A stretch of DNA of 64,000 bases. It comes from Pristiophorus japonicus. Its lineage: Eukaryota. Below the pieces are notes generated by a model. It was not told the origin of the DNA, did no database searches, and saw only the letters and a program-made list of their open reading frames with translations. This document shows, one piece after another, positions 24,196 to 55,743 of this stretch (the first letter of the stretch is position 1; every line of letters begins with the position of its first letter). The DNA lies in assembly GCF_044704955.1 (NCBI RefSeq), contig NC_091981.1:103664001-103728000 (forward strand), given 5' to 3'. The position numbers and the translations under genes are program-made.

Positions 24196-24279
24196 AACTG
24201 CAGTAATTCAGACAGTTTCGTGTTGTAGAGATAGACTTGAGCCCCAACAACATGAAACTACCTAAATCACACATCAGTT
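24196..24279 (-). ncRNA. MIR196: pre-miR-196 hairpin; mature UAGGUAGUUUCAUGUUGUUGGG at 24264-24243, star arm ~24228-24208
   Basis: Exact mature miR-196 sequence, a complementary arm (ctacaacacgaaactgtctga) and a basal stem; canonical location between Hox9 and Hox10. Confidence 0.96.
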
Positions 24280-39970: not shown

Positions 39971-40203
39971 TCAGAGCAATGGATTCGTAGTGTAATATTG
40001 AAGGCGGTCCCTGTTTAACTTCTTTTCCTTCATCCTCCTGTTCTGAAACCAGATTTTAACTTGCCGGTCGGTTAAGTTGAGCATCCGAGAAAGTTGCAGC
40101 CGCTTCTCTTTGTTGATATAGACACTGAAAAAAAATTCTCTCTCCAGCTCCCTGATCTGGTACTTGGTGTAGGGACACCTCTTTTTGCGTGTACGCTGGC
40201 CAC
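39971..40203 (-). CDS. HOXA11: HoxA11 exon 2 ([76 protein letters not shown])
   Basis: Translated by hand; [11 protein letters not shown] is the A11-type homeodomain; acceptor acag| at 40204/40203; 610+233=843 nt, 280 aa. Confidence 0.96.
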
Positions 40204-41249
40204 CTGTAACAGGTAAACAGTGCGTTAAAACTCAGAGTTGGAAATGAGAGGAACTATCATTTTTCCGTGCGTCAATATATGCTTTGCTGTGAACACATTC
40301 ACAGGAAAAACTCTCCATGGCTCCGGATTTTCACACGCCGATCTTTGTCAGCAGTACCCGAACTACAGAATTGTTCGCTACAGCATTAACGCGTTTTTTC
40401 TTTCATATTGTGAATGGTCCTTGGAACAAAAGATGGCTGCCTCGATCTGCACTGATTGTAATGGTTGTGGAATTCTCAAGTCGATGCTGTAGTACTCCCA
40501 TTCCAACCATATACATGAAAGTTACAAATGAGATTCCCGTAACCAGGGACTAGCTACAACTTTTAGAAGAGAAATATTTTTGAAAAGTGAATAATTCCAG
40601 TATGAGTGCAGTAAAGGCAGAAAATATTTGAAATGCAAGATATACAAAGTTTTATTGTATCTGAAGTGTTAAAACTAAAAGGGGTTGGGGAATGTGACTT
40701 GAGCTATCATTTTAAAAGAAACTGGGATGCACGAATTAGTTTCCTTAGGGGAAGCGACTTTATTATATAATCATTCCGTGTTGTAAAACTGGACATGGAG
40801 CAGCCTTCAGAAGTAATATTGCCGTGTTAAGACTGCGTCGATCGGATGTCGAGCTATAAAATGTGATTATTAAATATAATACGGCCACCCGGTCCTGAAG
40901 TAAGTTTTTATGATGGAAAGCTCCATGCTAAAGGAATTCTAGTATTTATGCAGCTGTTAACAATGACATTTTACCATGTTATGTTTTAAAGCGGTTACTT
41001 ATGGAACTCAATACAACCTATAAATAGAGTTTCTGTGTCAACACGTGTGTTTTATAGAATTGCTGAGCTGTGTTAATACACGCAAAGATCACAATAGCCA
41101 AAAGCAATTTTTTCATGAATTTACACCTAATAATTTAAATGATCAGATTTTTAACCCCAATCTTACTTTTTGAGGTGCTAGTGGAAGTATTTTAATGCAG
41201 CGATTGGCTGGAGTTATTTCACGGCCAATTTCAGAGCTGAACACGTGAT

Positions 41250-41350
41250 CTTGTCATTTATATAAAAAAAAGTTTTGTTGGGAAATCTACAGGCCATCCA
41301 TAAACCCCCTTATATGCTTATAAAACAGCACATAAAAATTTTAACAGCAG
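41250..41350. promoter_or_regulatory. HoxA11 intronic cluster of TTTAT/CATAAA homeodomain sites
   Basis: catttatataa, ccataaa, cttataaaa and cataaaa within 100 bp near the exon-1 donor. Confidence 0.5.
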
Positions 41351-41401
41351 CGCGCGAGATCGCAAAACTTTCTCTCATAAGTGGGCACTGATTCTACCTA
41401 C

Positions 41402-42011
41402 TGGAGTTGCTGCCTTTTTCCTCATTGTTGCCGGAAGAAGACTCCGGGCTGCTGCTCCCGGGGCTGGTCTCTTTCTCCACGGACACCCTCGAAGTCTCCG
41501 AACTTGAAGTTGCCGCAGACTGCACTTTATCTGGGCTCTTCTCCCCGCAATACTCCGACTGCTGATTCTCACTGGAACCGTAGGCAGTCTCGAAGAACTG
41601 ATCAAATCCTTGCGGCAGGACACCGTTCCTACCCACCGGGTTGTAGAAGCTGGAAGGCGCGTTGGAGCTGGGGTGGTAAACGCTGGCGCTATTTTTCATT
41701 AACATCTCGCCCATGGTGCTGGCAGGCAGACATTCTCTGTGCATCAGCTCCTCTGCGGAATAGCAATGGGGCAGATTGCCCCTGTGATGCCACTTATTGG
41801 AAGGATCGATGGCATAGTCTCTGAAGGTAACTTCTCGCACAGGTTGAACCTGGGGGATATTAGACGAGTAAGAGTATGTCATGGGGCGAGAAGCCGGTGT
41901 TTGGGGTAAAAAGGAAGGCAGGCTGGAGAAATCCGGACCCGAGACATAATAGGTGCAGCTAGGCAAATAAAGATTAGAGCCACAAGAAACCCGCTCATCA
42001 AAATCCATCAT
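41402..42011 (-). CDS. HOXA11: HoxA11 exon 1 ([37 protein letters not shown]...)
   Basis: PG11 N-terminal motifs ([23 protein letters not shown]); ATG at 42011; donor A|GTAGGT at 41402/41401. Confidence 0.96.
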
Positions 42012-45000
42012 CGCTTTCTTGGGGTCCCCTAGCGCAAGAAAAGCTTGCATTCGCACAGCTAAACATGGTCCTTAGATGCTGCTGCCTCTTTGAAGCTGAT
42101 CCGCGGAGTAAAAATTTGGAAACGTAAGCTGACGTGGAAATGTATCTCCATACATCGCAGGGACAAGCCAGTCATGTGACCTGATGCCTGGAGAAATTGA
42201 CATGCATCACTTTGGATTCCCCCCTCGCACCAGGAGCGTAAAGCTCCTTACATCTGAGCTCTGTACATTTCTAAAGGGGAAAAGGAAAGCTCGAATAATA
42301 CTGTAAAGGTGTTCAACCTTCACACCAGACACGCATTTGGCACATTTTCTTCACGTCGCTCCAATAAACTGACATGAAGCGAGGGTGCACGTAGAAACAA
42401 CTGCTAACGATTTCCGCAATGGAAATATATCAAAAACGGTTTATTTTCTAAAAAGAGCGATTTTCGACCGATCTCATATATGTTTGTTCTGCTGGAATAT
42501 TGTGGGAATATTCGGCATTTTTATTGGCAAATAATTCCCTTTACTTTCTTGGCATTTTAATGAGAGAAAACTGTGCAACATGCCTATTTCGCCTGCACAT
42601 AATTTGTGAAATCAGGGATAAATAATGACCAATACCCTGTAAGAAACCTTACCGAAATATAGAATGGTGCGAGAGCAATCTTTAAATGGCCAAATCCTGC
42701 TATATGAAAAATAATATCCTTTATCTTCCCTAAAAAAAACTATGAGAGCACACAATCATCTTTAGAACCCACAAAGACCAAGGGAAGATAAGTTAACCCC
42801 TCCACAAGTTCGACATGGGCGTGGGCTTGTCTGTGTTTTTGTGAGTGCATCCAAATCGATATAAGATTAATTCTCCCATAAAAAATGAACCTCTACAAAT
42901 CTGCCAAATGTGTGCGGTGAACAGGATTTTTTTTCTTTAAATTGTTATGCTGCTTCTGGCTTGCGGGCAAGCGGGCATGGTCACGTTCAACTCCAACACA
43001 TACAAAATCCTCGCCCAATCAGCAAAATTATATAAATCAGGTATCCATTTATTCGAGGAATATTAGCGTTAAAAAAATCCAATGTGCAGTCCAATGTCAC
43101 ATTTAGACAGATGTTTGTTAATGTGTTATTCAAGACAGAACACTTGCCGTCACTGAAAATAAGTTTAGGATGAAACAAACAGAGGTGAACAAAAGCGCGT
43201 AAAAGGAAAGATGTTCTACGTGACATTGGCCGTGGGCACATTATTTTCATACCTGAATACGTAAACGACACAGATTTAGTGCAGATTGAGATTTGCTTTA
43301 AATAGTTGAGTTTAGCGAGGGATTTATTCATTGAAGAACGTCCAATAAAATGCAGTTTATTTAGGGAAACTCACCGTGTAACAATCGCTATGATTTAAAT
43401 AGACGCTAAGGGTTTGAAAGCCATGCAATGAATCCTGTTGTTGTTGAAAAGAATGGGACTATAGAAAAGAGTTGATGTTAAACTTTGCCTTAGAATTTGT
43501 CACAAATTAGCTTATTGCGGTTCCAAAAACAACTGCGCAGTGCCAAAACAAACAGTTTCCTGGGAAAAAGAACCTTAGCCATAAACATTTGCCAGAAAGA
43601 CGTATAGTTAAATTAAATGCCATGCACTAAAATCTCTTTACTGGAAACCATTCTAGTTACAAGTTGACAATTTAATATTGCTTTTCTAATTGTTTCGTTA
43701 TAATAAACGAACAATAACGATATGAAAAGTCTGCAAATGCTTGCATCACAGATTTTATTCATTTTCTGACCTGCCCTAACTGGATAATTCAATCGCTAAA
43801 AAAATAAGGCCAGCATATAATACAGTAATCTGGATACTGAAAACACCGAGAATATTAATATGATTATATATAAACGCCATATTTTGTAATAAAGCTTGAT
43901 AATATTCAATATAAAGACTATGTGTGCAGTTCAGCCGTTGCTCATTACACTTACCCAACACTTCTACATTTTTATTTAAAATCTTGTTGGAAAATAAAAT
44001 GATTTGTATGAAATGGAATGATACAGGGAAGCCATAATATGCGAGTGGCTGCACATTTGACAGTTTAAAAATAAGATATGAACCAAATAGTAAACTGAAT
44101 AGGTCTCGCAATCGGGTACATTTAGTAACCTCCGTATTCAAAATTACTTAGGTATGATGTAGAATTTGAAGGTTTACGATTTAAAAAAGGAAAGGAAATC
44201 CGAGGAAGGTGGTGCGATCTGTCGCTGTATGAATGGGCAAATTCCTACACAAGTACAGTGTTTTTCATAATATAATTAAATGCAGGGCGCCTATGAGAAC
44301 CGAAAGCGGTTTAGTTTGGCCTGCGGTTTTAATAGCAGCTTTGACAACCAGCTTCACCAGATGCCCAAATAAGCATTATAGCTGACCAGGGGTGAGCTAA
44401 AGACGCCACCTACATGGAATCCCTGACATTCCCCGCTAACGTGAGCAATCAGGCGTCCCCAAAAAGAGACAAGGACGTGGCCTTTGTCTGATAAAAGTCG
44501 AGCTGAGTTTTAAAGAGTACTGTACATTGCGCGTCTTTGCTACGTGTTGATCAAAATCTAGTTCTTGTCCCTTTCTTTCTCTGCGAGAAGGATGGATTCT
44601 ACGTAAATGTGTTGCTGTGTGTTTTAACGCAGTTTGCCTATAATGCTTCAAAGAGAATAACAGAAGCAAAGTTGCAGCTATTTAATAATCTTCCAAACGA
44701 AAAAGGGAAGCTGACGATTGCGTTTCCGATTAAATAAAAGCCGAAAAATGAGCAAAGATCCATCTTATTCGCTGCGCCATTTTCTATCCATTTCTCAGTT
44801 ATCACACTTCTATTGTAGTAAGTATCGCCCTTTTACAGTTGACTTGCAATTACAGATTCTACATCAAATTAACTCCTTTCGTCATTTTTAGTCTTTAGTC
44901 GTAGTCATTTCCAAGAACATAGTCACGGAAAGCTAAAGGGATGGTTCCAAAAATTAAATATGCCTACCTTGTTGATGTTATATCGAGCACACACTGCGGG

Positions 45001-47750
45001 CATTCAGTTGATATTTGATGTGAATGAAATGTAATGTAAATGCCGAAGTTTAAGGGGATCACTGAATTATTGCGGCGCAGGCTATTTTCCTGCAGGAGTC
45101 CAACTCAACGGGAGAGATGGGACCCGGATGAAGCTGAATTTCTTCACACTGATGTATACTTCGAAGCTTCGTCGCAGTTATTGTCAGAAACGAAATCGGA
45201 TTTAAAATTCTAACGTTGAAGTTTGAACATAAAAGCAAGCACAAAAATAAGATTGTGGTAAGACAAAGTCTTCACGTGAATTGTTGGACGCCTTTACCAT
45301 TTAAGGATGCACAGCCTGCTTAACATTGAACTTCAACTTTGGAAAATACTGCACAACTAAAATAAATTCACTTTTTAAAGAGGGAAGTTATACTATGCGA
45401 AATTAAAATTAAGTCATGATGAAAATTGCTTAAATCCAATGTTCCTCTTCAAAAAAAGATAATTATTTGGACGAGCCCTGCCGACATTTGTAAAGTCGAT
45501 CTTGTCATTAATTGTAATGTAATGGAAAAGGAAATGAAAATTTAATTCGTCATTCATGGATTCATTAACTTTAAAGTCTCACTATCCGCGGGGTAAAAAT
45601 TAATAACTATATTTGCGGCGAGTACACTTTTACTGTTACCCTCAAGCATTCAAACCGCCAGCCATATTGTCCTTCACAGGTTTTACAGACATTTGTACTC
45701 ACATTAGTTCTTTACTTGCTCCCATGAATTACATTGCACGTTACTTATCACTGTGCAAATAAAGTAACATATGTCTTATTTGTGTGCAACCGCAAAAGCA
45801 CTTCGCTATACTACACCCCAAGCTAATTTTCTAATGTGGAATGGTTTAACTCATTACTGCATTATCTGTCTCTTTTTTAGACGGGAAAAACGTTGTAAAT
45901 GAGAAGAGTGTCTTCTTGAATAAGTGGAAAGTGGATAATTCCTGATTTAGCCTCCTACATGTAATATGAAATATTCAGCTGAAGCTATTGTCAGACAGTA
46001 AGTGTCGCCTTGTAACGGAATTCCTTCACATTATTATAATACTTCATTATAGTTATTAGTTCAAAAATAAACTGACTTCGAAATTGGCAGGGCAAGCTGC
46101 GCGCAATAAAACGGTCATATATTTTCCTGGCAATATCATTCTACATTTTAAGTCAATGGTGTGAAATCAAATAAAATGAAAAATAAAATTCTTTTTTGGT
46201 GGCGGGGGTCTACAATGACTTTATTTTTCTCTGATTACCAAAAAAATGTCACGAATCTCAAAATCTAAACTGCAAATAATTGGCCTCAGAAGGGTGCGTC
46301 TCTTTTATCGAAAATCCATGTTGTTTTTGCGTGTGAGGTTGTTTTGCCCCCTTGTTCAGTGACACTGGCAATGACAAGACAACGGTGACGGGCGGCCATT
46401 TTTATGCGTAGCGTCTCGGAAATTCTGCAGAAAGTTCATTTAAATACTTCAAGAAACGAACACTTTATTAGAAAGATGCGTTGAATTGATTAAAAAAAAG
46501 TTTTTGAAGATTAAAACACAGCCCGAGTAGAGCAATAATCGGACACAGCCTCCAAGCCAATTGAACTTGACGATGAAAACTAAGCCAAAGTTGTATCGTT
46601 TTGTTTCATTGTAATTTTTGTTGAACTACAGTAGATTTATTAAAATGACTGTGAACTAAGACATTCCACATAGAATAACGTGACCCTCAACTAAGCAACA
46701 GAAATATTTTAAACTTGATTTTTTTCTAATATTCTTTTGGTGCCCTATCAAAACCAGGACAGCACAGTCATACCCTCAAAGAATCAGTAAGGATTGGCAG
46801 TGAAACCTGAAATAACACGGCTTGTAAATTATAAGTGAGCATTTTACATGTTTTACTTATTTGCGCGGAAATTTATATTTCTCTCTGAAATCCTACAGTA
46901 TACTATGAAAAGGAATGCGTATATCTATAGTATTGGCACTTTTGTTATGGTAAATATGTACTACTTTGATTCCGAATTCTTTTTAACTTCTGTATATTTC
47001 CCCGATAAAATTTTTGAAACACTTTTGCGTGTTTTATTATGGTACTTTAAGCAATTATTTCAATATATTCCAAAATTAGGAACCCAAATATGTCAAGCTG
47101 CCCAATAAGTCACGCAGAAAAACTGTGCCGGTGCTTTTTTTTAACACTGCATGGCAAAATAAATGAGACGTTAATTAATACTGAAACTTTCCTTTTGAAT
47201 AATTTAGGCCTAATCGTCGTAATATTGGTATTTACAAATAAACGTGAACAATGTTTCAATTCTGAGCAGTTTTGCGTCTAATACCTGCGATTTTATTTTG
47301 AACAACACATTCATTATCACTGTTATACGAAATGACAATTTGAAGAGGGTGGGTAGTTCATGTAATGGTTTTGAACTTGGCATGCACGACAAAAAAATAA
47401 TGCGGAGATATACCCGTTGCTGACAGAGCAACATTTCAGCTATAAGTTTAGTATTTCAACGCGGATTCATGAAATATAAAAAATAAATATGTTGAATAAA
47501 CCCAATAATAGTTAGGTTGTAATTTTCGGCATTGTTATCCTTCACGAGAACATACCATCGATATATTTGTGTTAACTGACGCCTCTCCTCTATTGCAATA
47601 TAAATGCCGGGCCAAGCAGTCATGAACATTGAAATATCAAGAAGAGATGCAGAGTTCCACCTGAAATGACCGGGTTTGAACTTGGCAGCTCCTTACTTTG
47701 AACTTGGCTAGAGGAACACAGTTCTCTTCATTAAAAGGCACTCTACTTAC

Positions 47751-48070
47751 CTCACCGAGTATCAAAAACGGTAACATGAGAAGATAAACTATTTTCCTAC
47801 ATATTTCGGATGGATTCTTCCAGCTTTCTAATCCTCAATCTTTCAATAAATAGCCGGTACTTCAGGATGCGCAGGTGCGGTAGTTTCGGAACATTTCCTG
47901 AAGCTTTCTATCTATCCAGTGCCCAGTTGGCGTACCCATATGAGCACAGCGGCGGCCGTCTTCAAATTGCACCTAATCTTTGGCAGGTTAGCATATTCCA
48001 AGCCGTGGAGTGATGCAGTTGTCGCCTAGATGAACATTCAGGACCCACAAACGACGCATGTGTGCTCACT
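47751..48070 (-). pseudogene. Putative HoxA12 exon-1 relic
   Basis: Minus strand reads SEH..FVGP / NVHLGDNCITP...IC*PAKD*V / CNL...CSYGY. This is collinear with Hox12 N-termini (HoxC12 [26 protein letters not shown]...SYPRRDNVCSL...CNGY, from memory). It ends at a perfect donor GAG|GTAAGT (47751/47750) and sits between HoxA11 and HoxA13. Confidence 0.6.
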
Positions 48071-49512
48071 AAACTTAGAATGTGAAAAATGACTGAATCC
48101 CTTTCAACTGAAAGAGAATATGGAATTACATTGACATACTGAAATTGTGTTAAATGTCAACAGGACTGACCAGGACTGTATGCACCAGAGAAGAGACGGA
48201 CTGAACTGTATATTAATGAAAGCTACAATTAACGAATTGCACGCGCACTCGTTCTGATGCTTTATTAATGAGTTATGTAAATTACTTTGGATGACAGTGG
48301 CTCTGAATGTCGTTATATATTTTTCTGAATGTAGGACTTAATAAATGCTTTGAGCTCAATGGGCAAAGTCCATATCACAATATGATGCTTCAGTTTTTTA
48401 AGAGTATGCTTTCACACAACTGTGAATGAATTTACCATTGGAACTTTTATTTTATCTGTTTACATCCGTCGATGTAGAGATACAAAGCTAAAGTTTTACT
48501 GCTAATTCATTAACTATTTGAAAACAAATCACATTAACAAATAAATGAGAACCATATCACATTCCGAATACGATGCATAAATAACATCTCAGAATAATAG
48601 ATGGAGTTGGACAAATCGTCGACGTTAATTATACTGAAGAACATTTCGGCCTGTATGATTTCGGGAAACCATTAAAGAGCATCACTACACTACTGGAGGA
48701 CTGCGCTGTAAGATCATGCGAAAAATGTATTTCAAAGGGATTCAATATTTCATAAACCGGCACAGAAATTAAAGAATGAAAATTAGGATTAAAAAATCAA
48801 GTGTTTTTTGCTTTGAATGACAGTCAGTCATTACTTTAATCTCAGACTTGCATCTGGAGATGCAAAAATAATAATACAATTAAGACGTAATGAACCATTT
48901 TATGTCCAACATAACATATCCCACAAATGGGACAGTTGGAGTTGTAATTTTAAGGAAGTCTCGAGTTATACATCATGCAAAATATATTACGGTATATTAA
49001 AGCAATTTTTTGATCTGTAACTTTATAATGTTAAGTGGAAATAAATTGACATAATCACATATATGTTAACTAAGAAATACTTGAGCGTTTGCAAATAGTC
49101 ACATTTAATTTGTTATCAATAGAAATATTTAAAAGAAGATTTCCACGAACTGAAATATATTTCGCAGCAAAAGACACTAACATATATCAGACGTATAATA
49201 CTATAATCATTCCTCATGTTAGTTTGTAAACTTAAAACCTGTTAGTCAGGTAAAAGTGAAACGTTACACACCCGAAATGTCATGCAGCATAACCTGCCCC
49301 AAGTATGTGTATGTGTATAGATTTTTTATGTGTATTGAAAAACAGAGTCTGCACTATGTTTTCATGTGACTTCATTCAATAAGATCTGTTCAGATTCCTG
49401 AAAGGGCTTTGAGTTTCAAGTAAATTGTGTAGGTTTTTTTTAACACACCTTTTTAGACTTAACGTATTAAACTAATGTTTTATTTAAGTGACTAATCACA
49501 TTTAAAAGTTTG

Positions 49513-49628
49513 TGTATATCAACAGGAAATATACCCATTTATTTTACGTATATATTTATCAACATGAAATATACCCGTTTAGTATATAGTTATATCAAAT
49601 AAACAGATATATTTCATGTTGATATACA
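49513..49628. repeat. Small foldback/direct-repeat element with 21-bp terminal inverted repeats
   Basis: tgtatatcaacaggaaatata (49513) matches the reverse complement of tatatttcatgttgatataca (49608-49628) with 1 mismatch; an internal direct copy lies at 49557-49581. Confidence 0.75.
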
Positions 49629-52340
49629 TCCATTAATATGCACACACAAAATTAATATTCGCAAATATTATACTGTGGCAGGTAATCTGTAAATTCAATG
49701 TTTGAAGTCGCATAAATGGCCTTGTTTGTGTACTATATATTTTAATCTTATAAAATGCAGTTTATTATTTGTGAAATATATTGGACACATGAACGACTAA
49801 AGTAGGAAACCACGATTGTTTCCGAAATATCCCATTTTTAAAGGATTACACTTTTCCGATCCATGTTGTCAGCAATGTCTTTTGAAGTAATCACCATTTT
49901 TGCACTGTGGGTATATTCTGTTCTAAATGAAAGTAAAACAACGAGTCAACGTGTACATCCAAGCACCTTTGACGTAACTAGAAGCAGGCATATTTCAACC
50001 CCAAGGCTCCAGTTGATTATTCATTTAAAGAAACAAGTTAATTTTTGGATCAAAGTGGCTCAATAATATTTGGTTATAAATGTTAAAGTAAATTCAACAA
50101 TTTTAAAGTCAGTCTGGTGTAATTTTGTTTAAAAATATAGATAGCCCGTTCAAGAAAATATGCATACTGTTCATTGGGGGCATAGTACATTTAATTAAAA
50201 TCCATTTTAAACAGCTCGAGGTTTTTCATTGAATTAAGGTCAGGCATTTTACATTAAACATTATTTTGTAATGATTCACACTAAACGTTACATATTAATT
50301 TATATTGTTTGTTATTAAGAATATTAAGATTTGGATGCATTTAACTGCATGATATGAAGTTCTATTTGGAAATAAACACAAAAAATTAAAACGCGTTTTG
50401 CAGTGTGTGTATATATAGTACCTCATACAACTAATTATGCATAACCTTAGAATTGCTAGTGTGGCTGCAGCCGAGTGAAAGGAAAGAAACAAAATAAATC
50501 AAATATACCGTTTTATCAAGATAAATAAACACACAGGCTGCAAATAAAACAATCACTCCAAGTTAATTTAATTTGGATATAGACACAATGATGTGAAGGT
50601 TTGCACATTTTTAAAAGGTGGCGATAAGAGAAACGAAATGAAATCCAAAACTGTATTGAAGACCTTTCCAGGCCTTAATACGCATTCGATTCTCGTCAAT
50701 GGCTGCTACGTTTTTTTTCTAATGAACGCTAATGTATCATAGAATGATAGGCACTCTTATAATTATAGCCGATACAGAGCATAAATTCCGTTAAATTCGA
50801 TTAATAATGTTTGTTTCGTGTATTTCCATCGAAATTTCAAATCTTTTATGGCATTCTAATGTAACGTGCGAGCTTCTTCGTGAGGACTACAGAGGAGACC
50901 CTTCCTAAAGTTATTTCACAACACAAATTCAATTATGTACAATGCATTATCGTTTTTACAATAAACTAGGTTAATCGCTCATGATCGCCACTGTACTCAT
51001 AAAAGGTACATTTATTTACTGTAAATTGAGATTCACAGTTCAAGATGAATCCATTGGCGCAGAACCTTTGCAAGAACCGAAGGCTAAATGAGTATATTCT
51101 AGAATGTCAATTTCAACGGATTGCATTTTCTGTTTTGCTAGGCTTGTATCACGAGGTAACATTGAATATATGGTTAACTTTACTTGAATCTTTATCTTGC
51201 AATAAATGAATAACAAGAAATGACCCGAGTAATCCGAAATGTCCAATTCACTGCTGTATGGCAATGGAGACCTTTTTCCATTAGCCCAAGAAGCCCGAAA
51301 GAAATGTTTGCACTGGACTGATTTCTTTGGAAAGCTCGGATAAATCTGATCTGTTTTGATCGCACCAATCAACAATGGTTACTCATAACGAATAAAACAC
51401 TAATTAACTATGTATTTCTCTTCCTTGTAAATAGAAATATTGCGATATTTCTAAACTCGGCGCATCTAGTAAACAACTATAAGCTGATCATTAGATCAGC
51501 CTTGATCAGAGAGAATGTGGGTGGTTCTTTTCAAGTGTTTTCCAACAAATATTTAGTCGGATTTTACAAGGGGATGCCGCGATTGGTTCGACTACGTCAT
51601 GTGATGAGTGTAGAATATAATAATCCCACAACATTTTGACAAATCAGCTTTCACTTTGCACCAGGCGACTCCTGGATTGCCGTTTCGGTTGTATTAAGAA
51701 AGGACACAAGCTGGGCTGGACATTACCCATTTAATATTGATTGGAAATAAATGTAGCAAAAATGCATCGGTTACATAAGCGAACCTGCTTAGCTTGGTCA
51801 CAATTAATAATTGGAAAGAGCGCCTTTCTATAACGCCCGCGATAAAAACGGAATACAGTTTGCATGTCTATGGAATTTATCTATCATTCTATATCATTTT
51901 AACTGAAACGTTGAGGTACATAGATGCAATTTTTGGTTGATGTAAAGGTAAAAGGCAGATTAAATTATAGCTTTACACTTCTATTCCCCCCACCCCCCCC
52001 CCCCCAAATGGAATTTCACATACAATTTCCCACATTTTCTATTTGAAATTAATGTAGACTGCATGCTTTATAAATTTATGGGCACAATTCTTAACATCTC
52101 GGGTTGTTTCTAACGAAATTGCATAATGCCACTTACACGGAAAAAACAGCTAAGTGATTGCTTTAGTTTTGTGAAACTAGATGCTAAAATGTGCAACTAT
52201 ATGATCAGATACGGTGTACAGGAATTGAATTGATAAATCTGACTAACAGATTAGCAGAAGTAGATAGAGAGATGCAGTTAAAGGCAGATTGATAGAGTGA
52301 TGGAAGATATATAGACTGATACGCTATAGACTGACTGATC

Positions 52341-52361
52341 ATATATATATATATATATATA
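52341..52361. repeat. (AT)n microsatellite next to a degenerate GATA/GACT-rich tract
   Basis: Read directly. Confidence 0.85.
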
Positions 52362-54439
52362 CATATTAAACATCATTATAATAAAACTATGCATTTTACA
52401 AATGTGCTAATGATCATCTTTACCTGGTCAGTTTGGTTTCCTTTTCTTTAATAATTTTACACAGGCTGAAATATAAACTATCTTGGAAATTAATTTACAA
52501 ACTATGTCACCATAGGTCTTTCTTTATATGGAATCTACACCTTCCCGCTCGTGATTTTAGTTCAACCTCAAAAGCTTGGTGATTGTTTTTGGAGGTTTTA
52601 TTGTTTACATATATATAGTAATTCATTCCTGACAAGTCGTTGAAACTTGAACTTTAAAAATAATTTATCTGAGCTTTTCCACAATTTGGACAATGCATAC
52701 GTCGTTGTTTGTATTAATGATCTACATTTGACGGCCCCAGATCAACCTCTGCTTGTTTATTGTTGAAACATATATGTTAGGGTGCTCGCTTGCTCAAAGC
52801 CCATATAAATGAATATCCGCAGATGTAACGGTAGATGGCGCACTTGCTCTACCAATACACTTCATGACTATTCATGGGCTTTTAATAGTCAAGGTCAAAG
52901 ACTATCTGTTTTCGTCAAGGTCAAGGTTTAAGCCCCCCTCCTAATGCCCTGCCCCCATTTACAAACCAAAGGCAAAACGTATATTTCCAATCAGAATATG
53001 GAGACTCTGATGTTTATTGCTTTTAAACTTTCGGTATATTTTAATACAAACTTTGGGATTCCAGTTCCAGAAAGTGTTTCGATCAAAATAATCTTGATAC
53101 TTTCCCTGCCAGTAATGTTTTCGATTAAAAACAGCAGGGAATATTCACGGATACCTTATATTCTTATCAAATTTCTTGATTATTTCTAAGAACTTTAGTA
53201 CGAAAGCATGATTTCAAGGTATTTTAAACAAATGGCCTGGCTGACATCAAGAATAAATCTACTTGACCCATATTCTCTACATTTTTGTTTTAAAAGCTCT
53301 TAGTTTGGCGTCATGTTTCTTAACAAAAAATGCGACGCTGTTGTTTATAAAGACCTTTTTATTCGTGAAATAATTTGTTTTAATGCAAGTAATTCACTAG
53401 ATGAATAAAGACAACAGGGTATACAGATTAAATAGCTGCATAATAGTAATGCAAGACATATCTTAATTTCATGATTATCATTGGTGATTTAATTTTGTAA
53501 CTATAATTGGTATATATTAACTAAGCAGGAGAGGTGCAAGCAGATATACAATGCAGTATTTAAAAAAATACAATTGCACACATCTTTAGAAGGAAGCTGT
53601 GCGCCTTAACTCTGCGTGGAGACTAATGCTATGTGAGGTGGGTAATATAACTAGCAGACAAAAAAGTCTTGATGTTTAGTTAATGTACACGGGAGGGGGG
53701 TTCCATGTTCGCAGACAGATCTTTATTCCGCTTTTCAGAAACTGACAATCTACGTTGCTGTTTAATTGCGAAAGGCGTGGATGCTCCTAAATATATACAC
53801 TAGACAAAATGTAGAGCCCTAGAATAGTGCGTATTTACTTTCCGATATACATTGCTGTTTAGAATATATTCTTCCTTCTACCTGTACATTAATATCTTCA
53901 GAGATAGCGCATCCCTTCCAAAGAAAATGTAGTGCGTAAACATACATTTTATTATACATTTCACGATATATCCCATGGTTTACCTGAGGAAAAAATAGCA
54001 TGCACTCTAGTTTTTTTTTAATTAACCAGAACCTTTTTCGGCAATACACATTTTCTTCAGGTGCTTTGATGAACTTTATGCGAAGGTAGTGGATAAATCA
54101 AATTGGTACATTTAGTCTTTTAAAGTGATATATTTTATATGCATTAAACAATTAACTCCGCATGTTTACTACATTTAAAAATAGCAACTCTCTAGATTCT
54201 TGATTAATGGATTTGATTTACTTTTGATGAATATTTAGTTTGCTTTAACAAAATCGTTATACAATTTCTCTCCTAGATATTAACTTGTGTGTGTTTCTGT
54301 TTTTTTAAAGCAATGTGCAGGCAGAAAGAAAAAAAAATCTAGCATCAAGAAAATGAGCTGAGGTGGGTTTTTTCTCCAGGTTGAGATCAGTTTTTTTTAC
54401 ATTTTCAAAAGAAGTCCGAACGTTTCTGGAATTGTCGCA

Positions 54440-54684
54440 CTAGCTGTTACTTTTCAGTTTCGTAAGAACTTTCTTTTCTTTGACTCGTCTGTTTTGAAAC
54501 CAAATAGTGACTTGTCTCTCAGAGAGGTTCGTTGATGCCGATATCCTCCTTCGTTTGTCTTTGGTAATGAATTTATTGGTAGCATATTCCCGCTCAAGTT
54601 CTTTCAACTGCACTTTGGTATAAGGCACTCGTTTCTTTCTCCCACGCCGAAAAGAGCTCGCATCCGAAGGGTGCGAAACGACGT
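54440..54684 (-). CDS. HOXA13: HoxA13 exon 2 ([81 protein letters not shown])
   Basis: A13-type homeodomain; acceptor cacag| at 54685/54684; 649+245=894 nt, 297 aa. Confidence 0.96.
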
Positions 54685-55094
54685 CTGTGAAGAGAAAAAC
54701 ATACCTTACCATCCATGGAATTTAGCACTTGTCACCAATTAAAAGTTTAAAAACGGGCACTGTCGCCGGAGTCAAGTTCAAGATCACACCAGGGAGATGT
54801 TATATCGAGTGTACTTTTTGAAATAAATTATATGGCAGAAAATATAATTTTGTACAATACGTTGGAATTGTAAAGTCATTATGAAAAATCATGCAAAATA
54901 ATATTTAGGCAGTACACTAAACATTAAAGTAAATGATAATATATTCCTTATATTAGGGAATTACGAATATCATCTCTTAATTATAATCTATTTTATATAT
55001 TATCCACTGACCCGTGCATCAGAATGCTTTGTTCCCTTCATTGAACTCGCTTCTGGAGATAATTGAAAGCGCGCTGTCTTTTATCTATACTTAC

Positions 55095-55743
55095 CTGGCA
55101 GACTCGATTTCCAGAGGTGGGCAGCTTGGGGCTGCTCTTTTGAACAGCAGACTTGACCGTTCCATCCATTGGTAATTGCCCAGGGCTGGTAGCTCTCCAT
55201 GGGTAATAATGTTTCGTGTCTCGGTTCTCCCGGAGCGCTGATGGTGGGAACCACAGGTACATCCAAATAGCTGGGCATCGGCTGGTATGGCCCCGCGTAA
55301 CCTTGGTAGAAAGCGAACTCCTTGGCTCTGGAGGTGAATTCCTCGCCAGCGGACGTGTCCATATATTTGTCGGCAGGATAGCCAGACAAGGTGGAGGGCT
55401 GAGCACAGGACTTAATGCTGCTATGATGACTCATTCGGCAGGGATAGTAACTGCTCCCAAAGTATCCATAAGGAAGGGAAGCACTGGACGAAGTTTGAGC
55501 AGCAGGACAAGGACTGCACTGTTTGACAGGTTCAGCAATGCCAGAGGCTGGCATTTCACTCGACGAGTAGGCAGAGCTGGGGGCTAGGGATGCTGGATGG
55601 GCCATCAAATTCCTGCATTGATTTGCTGTGAAGTTCCCTCCTGAAAATCCATCCATGTTTTTATTAATTTCATCCAAACTATTGTCGTAGACGAACATCA
55701 CCGTGTCGATCCAGCGGGGATGAAGTATCACTGACGCTGTCAT
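55095..55743 (-). CDS. HOXA13: HoxA13 exon 1 ([21 protein letters not shown]...WKSSLP)
   Basis: A13 N-terminus and motifs [13 protein letters not shown] and [11 protein letters not shown]; ATG at 55743; donor G|GTAAGT at 55095/55094; no poly-Ala tracts. Confidence 0.96.

Follow-up and report, generated by a model that had tools for sequence, protein, structure and literature searches.

Hox12-like motifs in a GC-rich non-coding patch between HoxA11 and HoxA13 of the shark Pristiophorus japonicus

Background

Does the DNA between HoxA11 and HoxA13 of a shark still record a HoxA12 gene? We know of no working HoxA12 in any jawed vertebrate. Full-text literature searches, which did not reach the primary papers on horn shark and elephant shark, found no described HoxA12 remnant. 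The available part of the description of the skate and horn shark HoxA clusters contains no HoxA12 relic (PMC2746220), and Hoxa12 is mentioned in passing for zebrafish in the accessible text of another paper (PMC8713815). According to the portion of a preprint at hand, the mammalian HoxB cluster is devoid of Hoxb10-12 (bioRxiv 10.1101/2024.07.20.604409). In the excerpt of a lamprey study, group 12 was not found in these animals (PMC5054437), so that the ancestral N-terminus is not polarisable from them.

The window analysed here is a stretch of 64,000 nt from Pristiophorus japonicus (NC_091981.1, 103,664,001-103,728,000 of the forward strand), and coordinates below are window positions. A first-pass annotation had read a HoxA12 exon 1 relic in it, made of motifs in the order of Hox12 N-termini and followed by a splice donor.

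Genomic setting of the candidate

A six-frame scan of the window placed HoxA13, A11, A10, A9 and A7 all on the minus strand; a mir-196 precursor (24200-24273, minus) lies in the HoxA10-HoxA9 intergenic region. The candidate (47751-48070, minus) is located, as the annotation had it, between HoxA13 (54452-55743, minus), its upstream neighbour, and HoxA11, on the coding strand of the cluster. Exon 1 of HoxA11 (41400-42011, minus) serves as downstream anchor, and the HoxA11 promoter region at 42098-42213 can be aligned to the HoxD11 promoter. The upstream anchor is a non-coding element with two TGACCTTGAC words (52830-52931, minus), which has paralogues between HoxD13 and HoxD12 (27.4 bits, against a control maximum of 11.2) and behind HoxB13 (26.4 bits in HoxB). 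The element behind the group-13 gene is thus common to HoxA, HoxB and HoxD, HoxC giving weaker matches. We take the TGACCTTGAC words to resemble nuclear-receptor sites; a CTCF-like match at 52828-52841 abuts the element.

Bounded in this way, the slot in which a HoxA12 is expected (42213-52830) measures 10.6 kb, and its HoxD equivalent 10.85 kb. HoxD12 exon 1 (P0002, G000:C3) occupies that equivalent slot behind the common TGACCTTGAC element, 2.8 kb from the anchor, as against 4.8 kb for the start of the candidate. This distance is compatible with a Hox12 gene but not diagnostic. A second apparent A-D anchor (49473-49573, E 0.036), which would place HoxA12 exactly at the candidate, proved to be AT-rich noise. 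The genome contains four Hox clusters, including a HoxC cluster (G000:C37, ~40.08-40.43 Mb) in which C11, C12 and C13 are intact and the surrounding DNA is rich in simple repeats.

Composition and motifs

The candidate is a GC-rich non-coding patch with no open frame. Its GC content is 0.46 overall and 0.51 at 47851-48070, where 12 CpG are found, compared to 0.35 for the slot, and it holds the highest-GC 200-base window of 42213-52830. All the strings quoted by the annotation were found on the minus strand: AGT GAG CAC (48070-48062), TTT GTG GGT CC (48051-48041), AAT GTT CAT CTA GGC GAC (48038-48021), TGC TAA CCT GCC ... GAT TAG GTG (47993-47970) and TGC TCA TAT GGG TAC (47946-47932). The motifs to which they were likened agree with real HoxC12 proteins. 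The part concerning HoxD12 does not stand: HoxD12 is devoid of FVGP, NIHTGD and CNGY, and in the protein alignment reads YVGSLLNF.SP where HoxC12 has the FVGP-region motifs.

The motifs are spread over three frames with two stops, the expected ATG codon reads TTT, and no ATG is in register. The core of the likeness (SFVGP, a frameshift, then NVHLGD; 48021-48054, minus) accounts for nearly the whole profile score. The other motif-like pieces, C*PAKD*V and CSYGY (47917-48020, minus), can be aligned only with cheap gaps and contribute nothing at realistic gap costs. The last motif ends at 47932 and the final 181 bases before the donor align to nothing, which counts against an exon relic, as does the absence from the alignment of the blocks common to C12 and D12 (LLN, FYFPN.R, LPW), only C12-specific residues being matched.

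The perfect donor reported at 47751 is present: a consensus GAG|GTAAGT occupies 47745-47753 (minus), 47751 being the exon-side base, and the slot has no other AG|GTAAGT on this strand. With intact HoxC12 exon 1 (P0001, G000:C37) the candidate shares a short likeness to the N-terminal EH ... stretch and a GAG|GTAAG donor further on, the donor of C12 itself being GAG|GTAAGC. That exon measures 547 bases, whereas the candidate, in three frames with stops and lacking an ATG, measures 320; it also lacks the LLN, FYFPNFR and LPW blocks and a nearby exon 2, and its score is at chance level for the slot. From start to donor, C12 and D12 span 547-580 bases, and nothing of them could be aligned near the candidate's donor.

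Significance of the exon 1 likeness

We aligned 14 HoxC12 (of 48 listed) and 10 HoxD12 (of 120 listed) proteins, hand-picked for slow-evolving and diverse lineages; HoxD12 and HoxC12 queries were also taken from the same genome. Compared with database proteins labelled Pristiophorus japonicus, its HoxD12 exon 1 shows 99% identity and residues 5-80 of its HoxC12 query 100%, which points to a sawshark or a close relative. The alignment of Hox12 proteins to 47300-48200, proposed with the annotation, brought little: with 8 Hox12 proteins the best in-register tblastn match had an E-value of only 0.45, unrelated places gave better ones, and hmmsearch found no match in this interval. In frameshift Smith-Waterman alignments the genome's own proteins scored 28 (C12) and 33 (D12, elsewhere), compared to a window noise of 38-58. 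Among 30 combinations of profile and penalties, two reached p<0.05 against both types of shuffle and four against at least one; the former two were both the C12 profile with cheap gaps, and the D12 profile was significant at the candidate in none of its 10 settings, HoxD12 exon 1 showing no detectable similarity. The best-looking score (38.6 with cheap gaps, 0/150 shuffles) was rejected: in 628 kb of genuine cluster DNA used as control, it is equalled at 16 unrelated sites, GC-rich for the most part.

With local base composition taken into account, the C12 profile HMM gave 8.6 bits, with a forward score peaking at 48020, which means that FVGP and NVHLGD alone contribute. The likeness therefore rests on about 50 bases and concerns HoxC12 only: the joint C12+D12 profile reached 3.6 bits and the D12 profile 2.2 bits, the features common to HoxC12 and HoxD12 not being matched, and comparison with the genome's own C12 and D12 exon 1 DNA gave -1.4 to 0.5 bits. 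The 8.6 bits were exceeded at 11-12 places in the 628 kb; at least 8.6 bits were found in 11 of 76 real cluster tiles (10.6 kb each) and with 24 of 150 column-permuted profiles, and when the best of three profiles was allowed 19 of 81 tiles reached the candidate's score. Across the slot none of these methods, amino-acid and nucleotide profiles included, gives a significant match, an outcome that the annotation had named as evidence against its reading. Within the patch alone (340 bases) such a score is rare, which favours a relic: 4/600 shuffles and 0/300 permuted profiles reached it, for the best of 12 settings, although more diverged models raised the shuffle counts to 12/600 and 60/600.

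The shape of the alignment was also considered. It contains 9-11 gaps and on balance lacks 57 of the model's 210 bases, a length ratio of 0.73 that is more deletion-biased than 51/51 chance matches, and unlike the exon 2 relics of HoxA14 and HoxB11 described below (1.04 and 1.08). With a more diverged model the score drops by 5.3 bits; a drop of at least 4.5 bits was seen in 5/49 chance matches and 11/339 simulated relics of similar score. In the HoxB cluster, 27 bases reading SYPCQNNVC (G000:C21 ~33005153-33005179, L048) score 9.0 bits against HoxC12 in an AT-rich context with unsupportive flanks; this is a chance match as strong as the candidate. A direct match between the candidate and the interval downstream of HoxB13 (7.3 bits, 4/60 shuffles) was not counted, as the 60 bases involved are not in register with the motifs. 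On these counts we lean towards chance likeness within a GC-rich intergenic patch as the origin of the Hox12-like motifs.

The relic reading draws on what coincides at this place. Slot, strand and motif order are those expected of HoxA12, and the alignment begins at the N-terminus of the profile. In 4 of 5 settings no other place in the slot is more C12-like than the candidate, and this best site coincides with the GC maximum and with the slot's one AG|GTAAGT. In control tiles, at least 8.6 bits in the top 5% of GC occurred in 2 of 77, a top-GC window followed by GGTAAG in 11 of 77 and by AGGTAAG in 5 of 77; of four relic exons, three have a GC content in the top 5%. The coincidence of position, GC content and donor is more than chance usually gives, for features that were picked after the fact and of which the GC patch and the donor are possibly non-independent.

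Search for the homeobox exon

A relic of a group-12 homeobox was sought 0.5-2.5 kb downstream of the candidate and none was found, the best exon 2 profile score there being 2.8 bits. A weak Hox12-exon-2-like stretch (MPACP-QARS ... KKKNP ... LADL*; 8.4-8.7 bits) lies further on at 42865-42978 (minus), in the correct order for a HoxA12 relic. It would imply an intron of 4.8 kb, as it lies at that distance from the donor, whereas C12 and D12 introns measure about 0.7 kb, and non-coding cluster DNA (387.6 kb) contains 5-6 peaks that equal or surpass it. Exon 1 and exon 2 scores as high in combination were reached in 9 of 81 tiles and with 56 of 250 permuted sets. This stretch, which sits 650 bases upstream of the HoxA11 promoter element, is probably due to chance and was rejected as the candidate's exon 2 on account of its chance-level score and the intron it would need.

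Relics of other Hox genes as controls

Hox14 pseudogenes are known from the elephant shark, according to the part of the source at hand (PMC3707753). With the same tools we recovered a HoxA14 pseudogene in the present genome: exon 2 at 62332-62159 (minus) scored 107 against HoxD14, with noise up to 50, and exon 3 lies near 62053-61985 (minus). Exon 1 is faint (7.7 bits, at noise level) and is situated just beyond the window (G000:C5 ~103728400-103728843, L045). Relics of all three exons, with a split homeobox, are thus present. HoxD14 is intact at G000:C3:119378697. The candidate, if a HoxA12 relic, would be of the same kind as the chondrichthyan HoxA14/HoxB14 pseudogenes, as far as the excerpt of their description goes: a dead posterior Hox gene in its place (PMC3707753), with a faint exon 1 and a surviving donor. 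The faintness of the true HoxA14 exon 1 speaks for such a relic. HoxA14 nevertheless shows two clear homeobox exons, of which the candidate has none, and the significance given to the intact donor by the annotation is diminished, since the dead exon 2 of HoxA14 keeps an intact, readable donor as well.

A second relic is a Hox11-specific homeobox trace of 19-20 bits in the HoxB13-HoxB10 gap (G000:C21:33050097-33050290, L053, plus strand), hereafter HoxB11-like. About 400 bases upstream of it is a faint exon-1-like stretch; no Hox11 exon 1 peak above 4 bits was found next to this homeobox. An unexplained match of 17-20 bits to the Hox11 exon 2 profile was also seen at G000:C21 ~33026330 (L050) on the minus strand, opposite to the cluster. 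On the plus strand of the same contig, a GC-rich patch 2.6 kb behind the TGACCTTGAC element (~33002433-33003246, L048) contains pieces that weakly resemble Hox12, together with a GTAAGT word and a stretch resembling helix 3, with forward scores of 2-5.5 bits.

Like the candidate, the HoxB11-like relic lies in a slot that is empty in living jawed vertebrates and shows gap-rich decay; its homeobox reaches 19-20 bits and is Hox11-specific, whereas the candidate reaches 8.6. Under the same settings the gap densities are alike (11 gaps and 34 negative columns of 147 for the candidate, 12 and 31 of 156 for the HoxB11-like homeobox), a point in favour of a relic, and the argument that the candidate has too many gaps for one was dropped. 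The genome does retain relics of anciently lost Hox genes (HoxA14, HoxB11-like), and the HoxB11-like one raises the prior for old Hox relics.

In simulations, a C12-like exon 1 at B11-like decay fell in the candidate's band of 6.6-10.6 bits in 4-25% of runs, which is favourable to a relic, and Hox12 homeoboxes at approximately HoxB11-like decay scored no more than 3 bits in 0-15% of runs. In a true relic one would therefore expect exon 1 to be faint, but not the homeobox to have vanished, barring its deletion. The relic would be an eroded HoxA12 exon 1, killed before the radiation of living jawed vertebrates, whose homeobox exon was probably deleted and which neutral decay shortened from about 560 bases to 320; its donor would be the old exon 1 donor, unused or weakly used. 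We regard this history as possible but doubtful: the homeobox is absent at the normal intron distance while both comparison relics kept theirs, and more than 40% of the exon length would be lost while the A14 and B11 exon 2 relics kept theirs.

Conservation and RNA-like cover

Constraint was measured in one species pair, with a relative (organism B) covered by two DNA studies. The orthologue of 47730-48170 in organism B is gapless and differs at 31 of 441 letters (7.0%). Ten other intergenic or intronic pieces, two of which overlap the candidate, diverge by 5.2-8.5%, and HoxA11 exon 1 by 0.6%. Divergence lower than in flanking DNA was thus not found for the candidate in this species pair. The motif region carries 10 differences in 153 bases, a regional count that excludes the 5 of the 31 differences that were not placed. 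The Phe codon of FVGP reads Cys (48050) in organism B, and none of the listed differences falls in the donor. When differences are placed at random, a run as long as the longest one free of them (67 bases) turns up in 30% of cases.

Although none is recorded as RNA, runs X5, X11 and X12 contain RNA, since the spliced HoxA11 joint 40201-41400 is present in each of them; contigs of run X13 matched repeats only. The annotation saw in the intact donor a hint of continued non-coding transcription. This is not borne out by splicing: two RNA-like contigs, from X5 (47623-47935) and X12 (47565-47935), cross the donor unspliced, bearing in mind that contigs lose rare forms and give no strand, start or level. 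An X11 joint 46811-47987 was judged spurious, one of its sides having just 21 letters. Both contigs, from two studies and two species, stop at the same place (47932-47935) where DNA contigs continue, and 47936-48035 is uncovered in X5 and X12. The shared stop at 47935 hints weakly at a transcript boundary, be it an end or a start. It is preceded by a run of G, and we assume that a stop in this position could be a library artefact. Divergent transcription from 47936-48035 is a further idea; an AATAAA is present at 48340 on the plus strand.

Scattered RNA-like contigs cover 43849-48272, upstream of HoxA11, in two species, and other intergenic pieces at 43.8-46.8 kb are covered as well. This cover could represent a putative shark HoxA11-antisense or upstream transcript. 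It recalls HOXA11-AS and other Hox intergenic ncRNAs; in the part of the source at hand, antisense RNAs are described in tetrapods and a shark HoxA11 antisense RNA is proposed, untested (PMC5831813). Such tetrapod RNAs, the donor unchanged in organism B and, as a weak hint, the common stop at 47935 would suit a constrained cis-regulatory element, or the spliced first exon of a conserved lncRNA with its donor under selection, whether of Hox12 origin or not. We consider this explanation quite unlikely: divergence equals the background, the 67-base run is unremarkable and the contigs pass the donor unspliced. Rfam gave no family at the candidate (its sole match being mir-196), no stable fold was found (z +1.16), the patch has no match to a CTCF-like consensus, and no paralogous element occupies the corresponding place in the HoxD11-D13 interval.

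Copy number

The annotation had named a match to a dispersed repeat elsewhere in the genome as evidence against its reading. By search the region is single-copy: 47600-48250, 47560-47760 and 43000-47600 each have one genome match, in a search that skips very common words, and at 80% likeness 47730-48170 is matched by single orthologous contigs only. An old transposon or other repeat fragment is for these reasons very unlikely, even considering the words skipped by the search and two features that could be cited for it: CCAAGTTCAAA occurs three times on the minus strand (47707, 47685, 47380), and organism B has high-depth contigs that match a short segment next to the candidate, with loose ends at 47617. 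At some distance (49334-49441 and 49513-49629), a short repeat matched by high-depth contigs in all four runs adjoins an AT-rich inverted repeat with arms of 46 bases.

Conclusion

The candidate has no frame, no in-register ATG, no homeobox at intron distance and no excess conservation with respect to one relative, and its donor is crossed unspliced. A patch that is GC-rich yet unconstrained is as compatible with decaying coding DNA as with a promoter. Under the chance reading, which we favour, the locus would be single-copy, GC- and CpG-rich non-coding DNA between HoxA11 and HoxA13 that diverges as its neighbours do, and its Hox12 motifs would be a likely chance assembly from three reading frames. 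The patch would likely take part in a weak non-coding transcription of the HoxA11-HoxA13 interval, arising perhaps from a weak upstream promoter or from an RNA of the HoxA11-antisense type. Such transcription could explain a GC-rich patch beside a donor-like word without a coding past. The HoxA12 reading of the first-pass annotation stands between proof and refutation, and we hold it, in the form of a relic with a deleted homeobox exon, as the main rival and a tentative possibility, a grade that reflects a weighing of counts and not a computed posterior.

As it stands, the finding marks a detection limit: HoxA14 stands out clearly, a HoxB11-like homeobox can be detected, and a trace of exon 1 only is indistinguishable from chance in one genome. 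Should the less probable reading be true, the patch would be the first physical record of HoxA12: an eroded exon 1 that, with its donor, has kept its place from a time preceding the last common ancestor of living jawed vertebrates. An inferred gene loss would then become a datable sequence, the HoxC12-like N-terminus would be the ancestral form, and Hox12 would have been lost separately from the A and B clusters. Taken with the HoxB11-like trace and a possible HoxB12-like one in the same genome, it would imply that a near-complete posterior Hox set after the genome duplications is still on record in slow-evolving shark genomes, and it would bear on the relations of the four vertebrate Hox clusters and on the timing of the loss of group 12 from A and B.
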